In this document: piece by piece, positions 13,344-21,635 of the stretch
How positions within the stretch are numbered: position 1 is the first letter of the stretch
Layout: every line of letters starts with the position of its first letter
Source of the DNA: Pseudomonadota bacterium
Lineage (GTDB): Bacteria > Pseudomonadota > Gammaproteobacteria > Poriferisulfidales > JAYYZZ01
NCBI GenBank assembly: GCA_036687665.1
Contig: JAYYZZ010000003.1
Span: 68,129-132,128 of the forward strand
Direction: 5' to 3'
Length of the DNA stretch: 64,000 nt
Made by a program: the position numbers and the translations under genes
The notes under the pieces: generated by a model
Databases searched by the model: none
What the model saw: only the letters and a program-made list of their open reading frames with translations
Told to the model about the DNA's origin: nothing

Positions 13344-14314
13344 GTTATCCCGCAGTTTAGTAGATCATGCATGTTTAATGCTCCTACAAGCTGTTTGCTA
13401 TTATCGATCACTGGCGCTGCATTGATTTTTTTCTCATTAAAAATGTGAAGTACTGAAGTTGCAAGCTGCTCACTATCAATTGCGTAACAATTTTTTGTCA
13501 TTACTTCTTCTATTGCAGTTGTTTGAATATCAAAAGCACTATCTAGCGAACGACGTAAATCACCATCAGTATATACGCCTATAATCTTTTGTTTTTCTAG
13601 CACGACAGCCATACCCATACCTTTGGATGAGATTTCAATTAACACATCCTTGAGTTTTGCTCCTTTATGAACGATTGGTATTTGCTGGCCTGTACGCATA
13701 ACATCTTTTGCACGCAGTGTGAGTCTTTTCCCAAGCTGCCCGCTTGGATGTGATCTAGCAAACTCTTCTAGGTTAAAGTCTTTCGTCTGTATTAATGCAA
13801 TTGCGAGCGCGTCACCCATAACTAAGGCAGCTGTTGTGCTCGAAGTCGGAGCAAGGTCTAAAGGGCATGCTTCTTTTGCCACACTAACATCTATACATAC
13901 GTTGGCTTTTTTTGCTAGCTTTGATTTTAAGTTTCCTGTTAACACAATTAATTTGATATTTAGGTTTGATAGTGTTGGTACTATATTAATTAGTTCTTCT
14001 GTTTCCCCTGAATTCGAAAGCATAATGACAACATCTTGGCTGGTAATCATTCCAAGATCTCCATGCCCTGCTTCGGCAGGGTGCACAAAGAACGCCGGAT
14101 TTCCTGTACTGGATAATGTTGCAGCAATTTTTTGACCAATATGTCCAGATTTACCTATCCCTATGATGGCAATGCGTCCCTCACAATTTGTGATTATTTC
14201 GCAAGCTTCAACGAAAGAGTTATCTACCCTGTCCGCTAATGCGGCCACTGCTTCTAGCTCTGTCTGTATCAGTTCTTTTGCTGTTTGAATAATTTGTTTT
14301 TTATCTATGTTCAT
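13340..14314 (-). CDS. kdsD: Arabinose-5-phosphate isomerase
   Basis: SIS domain (GIGKSGHIG) plus a CBS pair. The ATG at 14314 overlaps the yrbG stop (ATGA); the track ORF extends to 14368. Confidence 0.9.
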   Translation of the reverse strand: MNIDKKQIIQTAKELIQTELEAVAALADRVDNSFVEACEIITNCEGRIAIIGIGKSGHIGQKIAATLSSTGNPAFFVHPAEAGHGDLGMITSQDVVIMLSNSGETEELINIVPTLSNLNIKLIVLTGNLKSKLAKKANVCIDVSVAKEACPLDLAPTSSTTAALVMGDALAIALIQTKDFNLEEFARSHPSGQLGKRLTLRAKDVMRTGQQIPIVHKGAKLKDVLIEISSKGMGMAVVLEKQKIIGVYTDGDLRRSLDSAFDIQTTAIEEVMTKNCYAIDSEQLATSVLHIFNEKKINAAPVIDNSKQLVGALNMHDLLNCGIT

Positions 14315-15321
14315 AAGGAAAAATTTGTAAGGAATTCTGGATTGTATGTCCGTAAATAATTGAAGCACATGTACAATGCATATGATATTACCAAGCCAAA
14401 TCCAACAGTCCTGCTAATTACAACATTTTTTTTAGGTTGCAAGCATATTATTAGCAAAATTCCAATTAAAGTTAGCATGAATGGGAAGTCCCCAGTAATA
14501 ACATAATTTGTGACAAAAAATTCTTCCGTGCTTCGAAACGGGTGAATTATAGCAGGCAGCCCTAGCACAGCTGTGATGTTGAATAGACCTGAGCCGATTA
14601 TATTTCCTGTCGCTATTCCATGGTGTCCTTTTATGGCACCTACAACCGACGCTGTAATTTCTGGGAGGCTCGTTCCAATTGCTACAATCGTAAGTCCAAT
14701 CACTAATTCACTGATGCCAAAACTTCTTGCAATAAAGGAACCGCTCTCAATTAGGAGTTGCGAGCCTGCAGTAAGGAGAGCTAATCCAACAAGCAAGTAC
14801 ATAATTGAGTTGGCGAGCGACATCTCTTTTACTAATTGTGTATTAACTGCTTCATCGGGAATAGTTTTTGTTTTCATTGCCACACGAATACTTAAGATCA
14901 ATATAAATGGGAGGAAACCAAACAGCAAGATACCGTTCCACTGATCATGTAGCCCGTCTGATAGCAACCACCACGCTAATATTGAGAGTCCAAGCCAAAT
15001 AGGAAGTTCAGTTTTTCCGAGAGTTTTATCCATTTTTATAGGTATTATCATTGCAGTTAGACCCAACCCTAAAGTGATGTTAGTGATGTTCGAACCGATT
15101 GTTGTCCCTAAAGAGATTTGCGAAGTTCCCTCGAAAGCAGCCATTACAGATACAAAGAGTTCAGGGGATGAGGTTCCAAACCCAACAATTACAATACCTA
15201 TTAAAAGCGGCGGAGCACTGAAATATCGTGCTAGCGCAACAGAGCCATCAATAAAACGATTCGTTCCCCAATACAGAAGAATGAACCCTAGAATTGCAAA
15301 TAAATGATAATATTGATCCAC
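14311..15321 (-). CDS. yrbG: Ca2+/Na+ antiporter family protein (YrbG-like)
   Basis: Two Na_Ca_ex repeats (GTSSPEL, GTSLPE) and about 10 TM helices. Same position as E. coli yrbG, upstream of kdsD. Confidence 0.85.
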   Translation of the reverse strand: MDQYYHLFAILGFILLYWGTNRFIDGSVALARYFSAPPLLIGIVIVGFGTSSPELFVSVMAAFEGTSQISLGTTIGSNITNITLGLGLTAMIIPIKMDKTLGKTELPIWLGLSILAWWLLSDGLHDQWNGILLFGFLPFILILSIRVAMKTKTIPDEAVNTQLVKEMSLANSIMYLLVGLALLTAGSQLLIESGSFIARSFGISELVIGLTIVAIGTSLPEITASVVGAIKGHHGIATGNIIGSGLFNITAVLGLPAIIHPFRSTEEFFVTNYVITGDFPFMLTLIGILLIICLQPKKNVVISRTVGFGLVISYALYMCFNYLRTYNPEFLTNFSL

Positions 15322-15392
15322 AGGCAGCTTGTGTAAAAATTATTTTCTGATTATACACAATGCTTTAATTGACCGACTAAAAAAGGAATCAT

Positions 15393-17894
15393 GTGAGAGC
15401 TTGGATCGTCAAACAATATGACAATTTAGTGATTTCTAGGCCACTAATAACCCTGATTTTGATGTTAATTGTGATCGGGTTTTTTTCAACTTTTGTGCCA
15501 AACTTTAAACTGGATGCATCAGCTGATTCATTGTTATTAGAGAATGATCAGGACTTAAAATATTACCGCCAAACAAGCGCCCGCTATGCCAGCGATGATT
15601 TTCTGGTTATTACATATAAATCAAAGGGCGATTTATTATCTGAAAGCAGCCTATCTGACCTGAATGCTTTACAAAATAAGCTAGAGGCTCTTGACCGCGT
15701 GAGCGACGTTATCACAATTTTAGATGTGCCCCTAATTAATAGCCCGCAAATGACGATGGGAGAGCTTACACAAGGTATTAGAACATTACATCACCCTGAT
15801 GTTAGTAAAATTCTTGCTAAGCAAGAGTTTATAGAAAGCCCGTTTTATAGAAATTTGTTAATGAGCCCAAATGGAGAAACAACAGTACTGCTTGTCAATT
15901 TCAATCGAGACCAAAAGTATTACGATTTATTAAATAGTCGAAACACATTAAGAGAGATTAAACTAGAAAGATCTCTTTCTGATGCAGAAAGTATAGAGCT
16001 AGAAAAGGCTACCTCAGCTTTTAGCGAATACAGTGCTCTAGTGGCCCAAAATCAAAAGAAGGATATCTCTGATGTCCGTCACATCATGAATGAGCATAGA
16101 GCGAATGCCAACATGTTTTTGGGAGGCATTCCCATGATTACTTCAGACATGATTGACTACATCGATAGTGATCTAAAAGTATTTGGAGCAGGGGTATTTA
16201 TATTCTTGCTGCTTATGCTTATAACTATTTATCGTTCAGTACGGTGGGTAGCGCTGCCATTACTTGGGTGTTCTTTAGCAGTAGTCATGATGATAGGCAT
16301 GCTTGGCTTTTTAGACTGGCGTGTTACCGTGATTTCATCTAATTTTGTTTCCTTGCTGCTAATTATTACTATGTCAATGACAATACATCTTGTCGTTCGT
16401 TATCGTGAGATGCATTCTCGTTTCCCAAACGAAAACAAAGAATCTTTGGTGAAGCAAGTTGTGCATTTTATGTTTATCCCTTGCGTTTATACGTCTCTTA
16501 CAACAATTGTTGCTTTTATATCTCTTCTTGTTAGCAATATTCGCCCCGTTATTGATTTTGGATATATGATGACTATGGGAATTACCGCTGCCTTTCTAAT
16601 TACTTTCATTTTATTCCCTTCGGTGTTAATGATTTTAAAACAAGGAAAGAGCCAGAATGAGAACGATTTTACAAAAACACTTACACTGAGTTTTGCATCA
16701 TTTACACAAAAGAATACAAAAAAGATTATTTTGATTGCTTCTTTCATTGCAATTTTCAGTGGTTTTGGTATTGCGCAATTGCAAGTTGAAAATCGTTTTA
16801 TTGACTATTTCCATGAAGACACAGAGATACACCAAGGAATGTTAGAAATTGACCAACAGCTTGGAGGCACAACTCCACTAGATATTATTCTGGATGCAGA
16901 TCCTAATTTCATAGCGCAACAAGAGAGTAATCAAAATTTAGAAACAGAGGAAGATGAGTTTTTAGACGACATGGATGAGCTTTTTGGTGATGAGGATGAT
17001 CAACCCCCGGGTTTCTGGTTCAATAAGCCTAAATTAGCAGAAATACGTAAAGTACATGATTACTTAGATAGCTTGCCAGAGGTAGGAAAAGTTTTATCAC
17101 TCACTACGCTTGTACGTATGGCAGAAATAGTTAATGAGGGAGAATCTTTAGATGACATCCAAGTGGGAGCAATGCGTGAAGCGCTGCCTTCAGATGTGCA
17201 GGATGTTTTAGTCAGGCCGTTTTTATCCGAGGATGCTAATCAGACCCGTTTAACATTGCGAGTTATTGATTCCAACCACTCACTTAAAAGAAAAGATCTT
17301 ATACAAAAGATTAGTCATTTTTTGGAAAATGAAATGGGTTATAGCCAAGATGTTTTTCACATAACTGGCATGCTAGTACTCTACAATAATATGTTACAAA
17401 GTTTGTATGCCTCGCAAATTCAGACTATTGGGTTTGTATTTTTTTCAATATTAATTATGTTTTTAGTGTTGTTCCGCTCTTTTTCTCTGGCCATAATTGC
17501 GATATTGCCAAATATGTTACCAGCTGTACTCGTTCTTGGTTTTATGGGCTGGAAAGGGATACCACTTGATATGATGACTATAACGATCGCGGCAATAAGT
17601 GTTGGTATAGCTGTTGACAACACTATCCATTATATTGTTCGTTTCAGACGAGAATTTCCTGTAGATAGGGACTATCTGGCTACTGTTAGGCGCTGCCATG
17701 GTAGTATTGGAAAGGCAATGTATTATACTTCGATAACTATAATAGTTGGTTTTTCGATTCTTGCACTATCAAATTTTATACCTACTATCTATTTCGGGTT
17801 GCTTACTGGTTTGGCGATGTTTACCGCACTTTTATCGTCTCTCACTTTTTTGCCAGCGCTTTTAATTGCTCTAAAACCCCTTGGTAGGTCATAA
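15393..17894 (+). CDS. RND-superfamily exporter, MMPL/HpnN-like (COG1033-type)
   Basis: 833 aa arranged as TM1, a large periplasmic loop, a 5-TM bundle, TM7, a second large loop with an acidic insert (EEDEFLDDMDELFGDEDD), and a second 5-TM bundle. GTG start. Confidence 0.8.
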   Translation: MRAWIVKQYDNLVISRPLITLILMLIVIGFFSTFVPNFKLDASADSLLLENDQDLKYYRQTSARYASDDFLVITYKSKGDLLSESSLSDLNALQNKLEALDRVSDVITILDVPLINSPQMTMGELTQGIRTLHHPDVSKILAKQEFIESPFYRNLLMSPNGETTVLLVNFNRDQKYYDLLNSRNTLREIKLERSLSDAESIELEKATSAFSEYSALVAQNQKKDISDVRHIMNEHRANANMFLGGIPMITSDMIDYIDSDLKVFGAGVFIFLLLMLITIYRSVRWVALPLLGCSLAVVMMIGMLGFLDWRVTVISSNFVSLLLIITMSMTIHLVVRYREMHSRFPNENKESLVKQVVHFMFIPCVYTSLTTIVAFISLLVSNIRPVIDFGYMMTMGITAAFLITFILFPSVLMILKQGKSQNENDFTKTLTLSFASFTQKNTKKIILIASFIAIFSGFGIAQLQVENRFIDYFHEDTEIHQGMLEIDQQLGGTTPLDIILDADPNFIAQQESNQNLETEEDEFLDDMDELFGDEDDQPPGFWFNKPKLAEIRKVHDYLDSLPEVGKVLSLTTLVRMAEIVNEGESLDDIQVGAMREALPSDVQDVLVRPFLSEDANQTRLTLRVIDSNHSLKRKDLIQKISHFLENEMGYSQDVFHITGMLVLYNNMLQSLYASQIQTIGFVFFSILIMFLVLFRSFSLAIIAILPNMLPAVLVLGFMGWKGIPLDMMTITIAAISVGIAVDNTIHYIVRFRREFPVDRDYLATVRRCHGSIGKAMYYTSITIIVGFSILALSNFIPTIYFGLLTGLAMFTALLSSLTFLPALLIALKPLGRS

Positions 17895-17976
17895 AAAAAA
17901 TTGGTGTAAGTAAATAAATTTGGTACATTGTGCAGTCTAATTTTAGAAAAGTGAAAGGATTTTTACGAATAAAGTT

Positions 17977-18612
17977 ATGTCAAGATTAGCCATATATATA
18001 AAACCTATACATTTTGCATTTATATGCATATTCCTCTTTGGATTAGGTTACTTCGGTAATAGCTTTGCAGCTGAGCAACCTCAAGAGCGAATTAAGGCTA
18101 CTGCTGATAAATTGTTGATATCAATACACGAGAATAAATCTACTTATGAAAAAAATGAGGATCTTCTGTTTAACTTTGTTGATCAAACACTATCGCCAAT
18201 CCTTGATTTTGATGCTTTGACCAAGCAAATTCTGGGGAGAAAGCATTACAGTCAAGCAACCCCAGAACAAAGACTCAAATTTGCCGATGCACTGAAATGG
18301 CAATTAATACGACTTTATTCAAAAACAATTTTGCAGCATTCGCACGCGAAGGTCGGTTATTTACCAGAGAACAAAAAAGGTACCGGCAAGATTCGTTTTG
18401 TGCGTACCGAGCTTTATCTTGGAGGCGGGCAACGTCCATTCAAGGTTGATTACGCTATGAGGCAAACTCATGGAGAATGGAAAATAGTGGAAGTAGTGGC
18501 CAATGGTATACGTTTGGTAAAAAGCTTGCGTAACACTTTCCAGCCTGAAATTGAACAAACAGGTATAGCCGCGGTTATAAAACGTTTGAATGAAACACAG
18601 GCAATTGATTAG
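17977..18612 (+). CDS. mlaC: Periplasmic lipid-binding protein MlaC/Ttg2D family
   Basis: Signal peptide ...GNSFA|AEQP. MlaC-like blocks ILDFDALTKQILGRKHY, TPEQRLKFADALKWQLIRLYS and GEWKIVEVVANGIRLVKSLRNTF. Lies upstream of murA, as in the mla operon. Confidence 0.8.
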   Translation: MSRLAIYIKPIHFAFICIFLFGLGYFGNSFAAEQPQERIKATADKLLISIHENKSTYEKNEDLLFNFVDQTLSPILDFDALTKQILGRKHYSQATPEQRLKFADALKWQLIRLYSKTILQHSHAKVGYLPENKKGTGKIRFVRTELYLGGGQRPFKVDYAMRQTHGEWKIVEVVANGIRLVKSLRNTFQPEIEQTGIAAVIKRLNETQAID

Positions 18613-18663: not shown

Positions 18664-20573
<1,910 letters not shown>

Positions 20574-20585
20574 ATAAAACAAACA

Positions 20586-21635
20586 ATGTACGTAACTGAT
20601 GATATAAGAATTAAGGAAATGATGGAGCTCAGCACTCCACAGGAAGTTCATAATGAGCTTCCTATTACTGAGCAAGCATCAAAGACTGTATTTGATGCAA
20701 GGAATCAAGCCCAGAAAATACTTTCCAAAGAAGATAATCGCCTTTTGGTAATCGTGGGGCCATGCTCAATACATGATCCTAGTGCTGCTCTGGATTATGC
20801 GCAAAAATTAAAAGAACAAGCCCATGTGTTCCAAAAAGAATTACTTATATTTATGCGTGTTTATTTTGAAAAACCACGCACGACTGTAGGGTGGAAGGGG
20901 CTTATCAATGATCCTAATTTAGACGGAAGTTTTGAGATTAACAAAGGAATGCGAATGGCGCGTGGGTTGCTTCTCCAGTTAGCTGAGATGAGTGTCCCAG
21001 CTGGAACGGAATATTTGGATCTTATAAGTCCGCAATATGTAGCAGATCTTGTGAGCTGGGGGGCAATTGGTGCAAGAACTACAGAAAGCCAATGTCACAG
21101 GGAGCTAGCTTCGGGATTATCGTGCCCAGTCGGTTTTAAAAATGGTACTGATGGGAATATTCAAATTGCGGTAGACGCTATTGGCTCTGCATGCCGACCC
21201 CATCACTTCCTATCTGTTACAAAGGATGGTCGTTCAGCTATTTTTTCTACTTCAGGCAATGAGCATTGCCACATAATTATGCGTGGCGGTAGTAAGAATA
21301 TTAATTACGATTCAGAAAGTGTCGAAGGAACTGCAAGTCGCTTGGAAAGAGCCAGCTTGCCAGTAAGAGTAATGATTGACTGTAGTCATGCTAATAGCGA
21401 AAAAATGCCTGAAAAACAATTAAATGTGGCTGCAGCTATATCTTCTCAAATTGCGCAAGGAGACAAGCGTATTATAGGAGTTATGATAGAAAGCAATTTA
21501 GTTGGAGGGCGTCAAGATATTTTAGAAGGGGAGCAGCTGACTTATGGCCAGAGTATTACTGACCCATGCGTTGGTTGGGATGATACTTGTAAGATATTGT
21601 CTAGCTTGTCAGAAGCAGTTGCTAAAAGAAGCTAA
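20586..21635 (+). CDS. DAHP synthase, class I (AroF/G/H type)
   Basis: 349 aa with the motifs LLVIVGPCSIHD, KPRTTVGWKGL and IDCSHANS. Confidence 0.9.
   Translation: MYVTDDIRIKEMMELSTPQEVHNELPITEQASKTVFDARNQAQKILSKEDNRLLVIVGPCSIHDPSAALDYAQKLKEQAHVFQKELLIFMRVYFEKPRTTVGWKGLINDPNLDGSFEINKGMRMARGLLLQLAEMSVPAGTEYLDLISPQYVADLVSWGAIGARTTESQCHRELASGLSCPVGFKNGTDGNIQIAVDAIGSACRPHHFLSVTKDGRSAIFSTSGNEHCHIIMRGGSKNINYDSESVEGTASRLERASLPVRVMIDCSHANSEKMPEKQLNVAAAISSQIAQGDKRIIGVMIESNLVGGRQDILEGEQLTYGQSITDPCVGWDDTCKILSSLSEAVAKRS

Follow-up and report, generated by a model that had tools for sequence, protein, structure and literature searches.

An RND transporter beside a retained mlaC in the vacated mlaFEDB slot: a putative MlaFEDB-independent lipid shuttle in streamlined marine Gammaproteobacteria

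Gene order at the mla locus

In a 64,000-nucleotide stretch of a gammaproteobacterial genome, called the window throughout (GenBank assembly GCA_036687665.1, contig JAYYZZ010000003.1, positions 68,129 to 132,128 of the forward strand), a gene for a transporter of the RND superfamily and a gene for an MlaC-family periplasmic lipid carrier stand side by side at the site where larger-genome relatives have the mlaFEDCB genes (Table 1). The movement of phospholipid between the membranes of Gram-negative bacteria is debated, and so is the direction in which MlaC carries its cargo. A lineage with MlaC, MlaA and an RND protein in the vacated slot, and with MlaFEDB gone, constitutes a natural experiment, in which MlaC is predicted to have a second inner-membrane partner that works without an ATPase. 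All positions given here are those of the window, and the assembly that holds it comprises 918 kb in 4 contigs and is about 86% complete.

The open reading frames (ORFs) of the window were assigned to families by Pfam and NCBIfam profile searches. Those of the RND protein and MlaC lie exactly where the original prediction had placed them, and ORFs and profile matches also agree with the arrangement it described, in which RND-mlaC-murA runs divergently from yrbG-kdsD-kdsC-lptCAB-rpoN. On the opposite strand the order is yrbG, kdsD, kdsC, lptC, lptA, lptB, rpoN and rapZ, while murA is followed at its 3' side by hisG, a gene for a class I DAHP synthase, and hisD. The gap between mlaC and murA is just 60 bp, and thus neither mlaB nor ibaG is present at the locus; with the RND gene filling the upstream slot, the window contains no MlaF, MlaE, MlaD, MlaB or IbaG, as had been claimed. 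Scanning the RND-mlaC spacer revealed neither a terminator-like nor a promoter-like site, which is consistent with co-transcription of the two genes. Promoters for both yrbG and the RND gene presumably lie in the divergent intergenic region, where the sole promoter-like matches in the promoter and terminator scan are weak and on the minus strand. The GTG start of the RND gene is supported by a Shine-Dalgarno-like AAGGA 6 nt upstream and by residue Y9, which is invariant among 49 orthologues.

Table 1. Features of the mla locus in the window
Feature	Position	Strand	Evidence
yrbG-type Na+/Ca2+ exchanger, opening the divergent arm	14311..15321	-	PF01699 (190 bits); TIGR00367 (203 bits)
Intergenic region separating the divergent yrbG (-) and RND (+) genes	15322..15392	.	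Sequence reading
RND transporter of MMPL/HpnN fold, 833 aa, GTG start	15393..17894	+	PF03176; AlphaFold2 model; Foldseek
Disordered acidic loop of periplasmic domain 2, about aa 505-540, ...EEDEFLDDMDELFGDEDD...	16905..17012	+	Alignment; AlphaFold2 pLDDT
RND-mlaC spacer, 82 bp	17895..17976	+	Terminator and promoter scan
MlaC-family periplasmic lipid carrier, 211 aa	17977..18612	+	PF05494
murA, downstream anchor of the canonical mla locus	18673..19932	+	TIGR01072 (600 bits); order also in relatives

Retention of MlaC and MlaA and loss of MlaFEDB

Both family assignments made in the original prediction hold in profile searches. The RND protein matches MMPL (PF03176) at 113.5 bits (cutoff 20.5), with weak Sterol-sensing and Patched matches besides, and the small protein encoded downstream of it scores as MlaC (PF05494) at 130.2 bits (cutoff 26), covering profile positions 2-166 of 166. 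As read from its sequence, MlaC begins with a signal-peptide-like hydrophobic segment ending in ...GNSFA/AEQ. It falls below the cutoff of the Escherichia coli-type equivalog model (NF011697; 52 bits, cutoff 195), and also below that of its best NCBIfam match, HpnM (TIGR03481; 66 bits, cutoff 160), while the nearest solved structure is that of Pseudomonas Ttg2D/MlaC (6HSY, 4FCZ; 78 bits). MlaC is single-copy in the whole genome. The genome also encodes one MlaA (PF04333, 233 bits; G000:C3:197515-198087) with the lipobox LTSC, its gene lying about 111 kb from RND-mlaC among housekeeping genes and not in one operon with them. No acidic-Phe motif is obvious in this MlaA.

The possibility that mlaFEDB had merely moved elsewhere was addressed by searching the whole genome. 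Neither the MCE domain of MlaD (PF02470) nor MlaE (PF02405) has any match in it. The products of the canonical operons (MlaF, E, D, C and B) in a Sedimenticola metagenome-assembled genome (MAG) and a Chromatiaceae MAG served as tblastn probes against the genome. Those of MlaE, MlaD and MlaB gave nothing (best E about 0.7), the MlaC probes recovered the mlaC of the window, and the MlaF probes matched generic ABC ATPases alone, at about 33% identity.

Conservation in relatives and history of the locus

Relatives of the RND protein are found by the thousand in marine metagenomes at 57-60% identity. Scanning species-representative genomes for the RND gene yielded 80 loci, and in 12 of these the order kdsD, RND-mlaC-murA-hisG is kept, with RND-mlaC spacers of 32-65 bp; the two genes are therefore conserved together, a point on which the prediction could have failed. 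These 12 loci come from marine gammaproteobacterial MAGs of 0.8-1.2 Mb, plus one 1.8-Mb bin. Eleven of the 12 genomes have no MCE protein, exactly one MlaC, one MlaA and no hopene cyclase. The twelfth, the 1.8-Mb bin, is labelled Flavobacteriaceae, has one MCE match and is probably a mixed bin. Because 11 relatives likewise have no MCE protein, MlaFEDB loss marks the lineage as a whole and does not stem from a gap in one assembly.

The surrounding branches show what this site looked like elsewhere. Two larger-genome relatives, the Sedimenticola and Chromatiaceae MAGs, have mlaF-E-D-C-B-murA-hisG-hisD here. Three complete chromosomes of the sister family Oxydemutatoraceae read kdsD, yrbG and, divergently, mlaC-murA-hisG-DAHP synthase-hisD; they have neither mlaFED nor the RND gene at the mla site, and no MCE protein anywhere. 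The lineage of the window has lost mlaF, mlaE, mlaD, mlaB and ibaG and has kept its ancestral mlaC in place together with mlaA.

In a tree of 60 MlaC sequences (LG+C20), the MlaC of the window groups with those of its 12 relatives in a single clade (100/100), whose sister group is the solitary MlaCs of Oxydemutatoraceae (93/96). Both clades nest in a gammaproteobacterial group with MlaD-adjacent MlaCs (100/99), and the MlaCs of Nitrospinota are separate. The original prediction had described mlaC as retained in the mlaFEDB slot, and this description is borne out by the gene order of the larger relatives and by the position of the window MlaC among canonical gammaproteobacterial MlaCs. The RND tree repeats the sister relationship with Oxydemutatoraceae (SH-aLRT 100). 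Since the MlaC tree follows the organismal lineage and is congruent with the RND tree, mlaC is an ancestral gene kept in situ by vertical descent, and its acquisition by transfer along with the RND gene was rejected. The RND gene is also vertically inherited and was brought beside mlaC within this clade. The stem branches leading to the MlaCs of these lineages, which follow the loss of MlaFED, are long (0.92 and 1.91), as would be expected if MlaC had adapted to a new partner or if constraint on it had relaxed.

One further feature of the locus is shared beyond the clade. The DAHP synthase gene (20586-21635) sits between hisG and hisD, and the same insertion is found in the three Oxydemutatoraceae chromosomes and in a separate family (f189) of 1.1-Mb genomes (loci L117-L119 and L128-L129). 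It is an old lineage marker and not a local oddity.

Association of the RND protein with the absence of MCE proteins

The co-occurrence of the RND protein with a lack of MCE proteins extends well beyond the close relatives. Of the 48 genomes examined that carry the RND gene, 22 lack an MCE domain and all 48 have MlaC, and MlaA was found in each of the 20 MCE-less genomes in which it was checked. These MCE-less carriers include four complete Nitrospinales chromosomes and two gammaproteobacterial genomes of 3-4 Mb (G035, and G045, which is complete).

To describe the class as a whole, 400 genomes of Gammaproteobacteria were drawn evenly across families and scored for MCE (PF02470) and for an RND orthologue, taken as a match with E no higher than 1e-100. 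MCE proteins are present in 366 and missing in 34, and the RND orthologue occurs in 63. Of the four combinations, 24 genomes have RND without MCE, 39 have both, 10 have neither and 327 have MCE without RND, which corresponds to an odds ratio of 20.1 (Fisher p 3e-14, a statistic that ignores kinship). Expressed as frequencies, 71% of MCE-less genomes carry the RND protein as compared with 11% of MCE-positive ones. The 24 MCE-less carriers span about 20 GTDB families, and two of the 10 genomes lacking both are endosymbionts of 0.3-0.4 Mb. On the RND tree, the MCE-less state requires at least 18 changes. As far as could be found, this class-wide enrichment of the RND protein among MCE-less genomes is a new observation, and it turns a hypothesis about a single locus into a general rule that can be tested.

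Repeated adjacency of RND and mlaC

When ORFs within 2.5 kb of RND genes were clustered, MlaC proved to be the largest neighbour family, present at 44 of about 134 loci. Four layouts occur: mlaC is co-directional and downstream, co-directional and upstream (L082, L167, L169), divergent (L022, L044) or, in Nitrospinota, convergent. For adjacency to mlaC, the RND tree implies no fewer than 15 changes, at least 8 of them forced by supported branches. Adjacency does not track MCE loss: mlaC lies next to the RND gene in 3 of 20 flanks from MCE-less genomes and in 7 of 40 from MCE-positive ones, and adjacency and MCE loss are thus separate signals. The exact order RND-mlaC-murA-hisG-hisD is found in three MCE-positive genomes as well (L156, L158, L165). 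At loci without mlaC, another conserved partner gene was sought and rejected, the recurrent neighbours there being lineage-specific synteny.

Several individual arrangements were also recorded. Two MCE-less 1.1-Mb genomes have a second layout at the same site (L128 in G395 and L129 in G235), with murA (-) on one side, RND (+) and mlaC (-) converging in the middle, and yrbG (+) on the other. In Nitrospinota (L020, 12717-14446, and about 20 other loci), a pair of mlaC and a GHMP kinase gene converges on the RND gene; the genomes with this pair encode a hopene cyclase together with 2-4 MlaC paralogues, and MCE proteins are missing from several of the complete ones. In the complete 3.9-Mb gammaproteobacterial chromosome without MCE (G045; L092, 787-2010), the MlaC domain is C-terminal in an ORF of 407 aa whose N-terminal extension of about 230 aa has no Pfam match and could be a mis-called start or a fusion. 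Some larger Gammaproteobacteria have two RND paralogues, each adjacent to an mlaC (L082/L090 in G048, L158/L167 in G374 and L165/L169 in G209), and in the first of these, G048, five MlaC genes occur along with two for MlaA and a hopene cyclase.

Family, fold and conserved residues of the RND protein

Beyond the MMPL domain, curated subfamily models describe the RND protein poorly. It scores 164.7 bits against the HAE3 subfamily model (TIGR00921), below the cutoff of 351.9, and 121 bits against the NCBIfam MMPL model, far below cutoff. Both HpnN models remain below cutoff as well (NF052374, 93 bits against 1100; TIGR03480, 109 bits against 752). Hydropathy and an AlphaFold2 (AF2) model, built from a 49-sequence alignment (mean pLDDT 85.9, pTM 0.81), give 12 transmembrane (TM) helices, with large periplasmic loops in two places (about aa 41-255 and 466-670). 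A Foldseek search of the PDB with this model returned MmpL5, MmpL4, MmpL3, HpnN and NPC1-type proteins as top matches, and also Patched, with E values of 1e-25 to 1e-18 overall and 1e-25 to 1e-19 for the MmpL proteins and HpnN, TM-scores of 0.64-0.70 and identities of 12-15%. As judged from the model, the protein belongs to the lipid/sterol branch of the RND superfamily and would be of the lipid type rather than the drug type. When sequence alone is compared, HpnN is the closest protein of solved structure, at just 37 bits (solved HpnN structures are 5KHN, 5KHS and 6WU0).

Conserved residues add detail to this picture. Across the 49 orthologues, invariant intramembrane polar residues are found in TM4 (S315, N317 and H332) and TM10 (D726, D742 and H746), a pattern that resembles a proton relay. 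All 49 orthologues have the acidic loop of periplasmic domain 2, which varies in length and contains a recurrent D-x-[FLY]-x-[DE] core directly before the invariant W542; pLDDT falls below 50 at residues 527-536. It occurs in orthologues both with and without an adjacent mlaC. From these features we infer that the loop is a candidate docking element. The model also contains a long helical hairpin (H174-192 and H197-235) in periplasmic domain 1, before TM2 (aa about 174-235; 15912-16097), which is reminiscent of the coiled-coil extensions of MmpL4 and MmpL5.

A proposed lipid shuttle

These observations make it fairly likely that the operon-like pair of RND and mlaC, together with MlaA, encodes a lipid shuttle that is independent of MlaFEDB and driven by the proton-motive force. 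In such a system, the RND protein would hand lipid to MlaC, possibly by docking through the conserved disordered loop of its second periplasmic domain, and MlaC would carry the lipid to MlaA at the outer membrane, with energy supplied by the proton-motive force and not by ATP. Transport would most likely be anterograde, from the inner membrane to the outer, since RND proteins with this fold act as exporters; a retrograde route is also possible. As substrate, a glycerophospholipid or lysophospholipid is most likely, and not a hopanoid, because the genome has no hopene cyclase. The original prediction had proposed the RND protein as the inner-membrane partner of MlaC. This proposal has gained from comparative genomics, with a 20-fold enrichment in MCE-less genomes, repeated independent adjacency, and MlaA and MlaC kept in every genome checked for them, while interaction and transport are still inferred; for a genomic inference, the case that the RND protein may be an alternative partner of MlaC is strong.

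A wider generalisation can be put forward more tentatively and must be considered doubtful. The RND orthogroup may be a general non-orthologous replacement of MlaFEDB, such that Gammaproteobacteria, and Nitrospinota as well, lose all MCE proteins only if they carry it, with MlaC and MlaA then running on the proton-motive force and probably exporting phospholipid. TamB (PF04357) is absent from this genome, from the 11 small-genome relatives, from Oxydemutatoraceae and from three of the four complete Nitrospinales. The survey of the 11 small-genome relatives for AsmA-type proteins, which used the PF05170 and PF04357 profiles and left out YhdP- and YdbH-type proteins, found no PF05170 AsmA in any of them. 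If the proposed shuttle exists, RND-MlaC-MlaA would be the main route of a known type for phospholipid to the outer membrane wherever TamB and detectable AsmA-type proteins are lacking, as in these 11 relatives.

Alternative explanations

An alternative possibility is that the RND protein independently exports some other hydrophobic compound and came to lie next to mlaC through streamlining or rearrangement, with MlaC and MlaA working either without a dedicated energised inner-membrane partner or with another one, for instance the AsmA-like protein. This is the most serious of the alternatives, although it appears unlikely, and it draws on a number of observations that weigh against the proposed shuttle. 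Roughly two out of three RND orthologue loci lack an mlaC within 3 kb; adjacency is evidently dispensable, and in a streamlined genome it could have arisen partly by chance. In Oxydemutatoraceae, mlaC stands alone at the locus and the RND orthologue (53-57% identity) is about 500 kb away. The 39 sampled genomes that have both the RND protein and MCE proteins indicate that the former is not simply an alternative to MlaFEDB. The counts themselves have limits, as PF02470 merges MlaD with PqiB/LetB-type MCE proteins and kinship in the class sample was handled by the even draw across families alone, and the incomplete assembly limits the absences stated for the whole genome. Finally, this genome does encode an AsmA-family protein (PF05170, 727 aa; C2:226-2064, adjoining mutY), which could carry the bulk of lipid flow.

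Several observations argue against an independent exporter. The RND protein is enriched 20-fold in MCE-less genomes over about 20 families. MlaC is its commonest neighbour, in four orientations and with at least 8-15 independent adjacency events. Translational coupling of mlaC with an RND gene is reported in Campylobacter jejuni (bioRxiv 10.64898/2026.08.28.747810), and the predicted fold of the RND protein is of the lipid type and not the drug type.

It is far less probable that RND and MlaC correspond to HpnN and HpnM and export a hopanoid or another polycyclic triterpenoid. The best NCBIfam match of the small protein is indeed HpnM and the RND protein does match HpnN, which is also its nearest solved structure by sequence; moreover, Nitrospinales and G048, both of which carry RND-mlaC pairs, have a hopene cyclase. 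However, the scores of 66 and 109 bits fall well short of the curated cutoffs (160 for HpnM; 752 and 1100 for HpnN), and MlaC groups with canonical gammaproteobacterial MlaC. Squalene-hopene cyclase (TIGR01507) is missing not just here but also in all 11 close relatives, in Oxydemutatoraceae and in several RND-bearing Gammaproteobacteria with larger genomes. On the strength of the sub-cutoff scores and the missing cyclase, an HpnN/HpnM identity was rejected.

That MlaFEDB lies hidden in the unassembled 14% or so of the genome, with nothing replaced, is suggested by the completeness estimate of 86% and is just as improbable, as the canonical slot upstream of mlaC-murA is filled by the RND gene, MlaE is missing along with MlaD, tblastn with MlaE, MlaD and MlaB found no trace of them, and MCE proteins are lacking in 11 related MAGs, one with a 1.06-Mb contig, and in three complete sister-family chromosomes.

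Comparison with known systems

One close comparison is with the MlaA-MlaC-MlaFEDB system in its canonical form, as in E. coli and Pseudomonas (Ttg2). The locus is the same, with kdsD and lptCAB divergent and murA downstream, and MlaC and MlaA are orthologous. In contrast to the canonical system, this genome lacks MlaF (the ABC ATPase), MlaE (the permease), MlaD (the MCE hexamer), MlaB (the STAS protein) and IbaG, the energy would come from the proton-motive force instead of ATP, and the surface on which MlaC docks cannot be an MCE ring. By fold, the closest proteins are those of mycobacteria. MmpL3, MmpL4 and MmpL5 are monomeric RND exporters of lipids or siderophores that pass their cargo to periplasmic acceptors, and they are the best structural matches of the RND protein (TM-score 0.65-0.70). 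Identity is only 12-15%, and MmpL proteins differ in having MmpS or AcpM accessories, no MlaC-family partner and a different envelope.

Two published proposals combine an RND protein with MlaC-like and MlaA-like partners. In the first, HpnN (RND), HpnM (MlaC-like) and HpnS (MlaA-like) are proposed to export hopanoids in a manner "analogous to MlaC-MlaA-MlaBDEF" (bioRxiv 10.1101/2025.07.29.667474, which cites Tripathi et al., Arch Microbiol 2025). The system described here likewise joins an MMPL-fold RND protein, an MlaC-family periplasmic protein and an MlaA-family lipoprotein. Genomes with HpnN-HpnM-HpnS produce hopanoids and possess, in addition, a canonical Mla system with an MlaC of its own (bioRxiv 10.1101/2025.07.29.667474), whereas the genome studied here has no hopene cyclase, a single MlaC of the canonical lineage, and HpnN and HpnM scores below cutoff.

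The second proposal concerns C. jejuni, in which mlaA (Cj1371), mlaC (Cj1372) and an MmpL3-like RND gene (Cj1373) form one operon. The RND protein is hypothesised to act as a lipid/H+ transporter that supplies MlaC with lipid bound for MlaA, probably in anterograde transport, and MlaFED is kept as well (bioRxiv 10.64898/2026.08.28.747810). The likeness to the present system is one of arrangement and of proposal, as an MmpL-like RND gene lies beside mlaC on the same strand, MlaA is present and the same mechanism is proposed. The gene order differs, mlaC preceding the RND gene and mlaA being part of the operon in C. jejuni, whereas here the RND gene comes first, the spacer is 82 bp and mlaA is about 111 kb away. 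Moreover, C. jejuni has MlaFED elsewhere, while the genome studied here has lost MlaFEDB altogether.

The original prediction knew of no characterised pairing of an RND protein with MlaC. This stands in so far as both prior proposals are hypotheses, and the literature search found no experiment on RND-MlaC interaction or lipid hand-off; the idea itself is not new, as it had been put forward for C. jejuni and for HpnN-HpnM-HpnS. No paper on MlaC with an RND protein in the absence of MlaFEDB was found in that search. What is new here is the complete loss of MlaFEDB, with an RND gene in the vacated slot beside a vertically retained mlaC and without hopanoid synthesis. If the proposed shuttle is real, it would lend comparative-genomic support to both the C. 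jejuni and the HpnN-HpnM-HpnS proposals, and it would define a minimal envelope-lipid machinery for streamlined marine bacteria.

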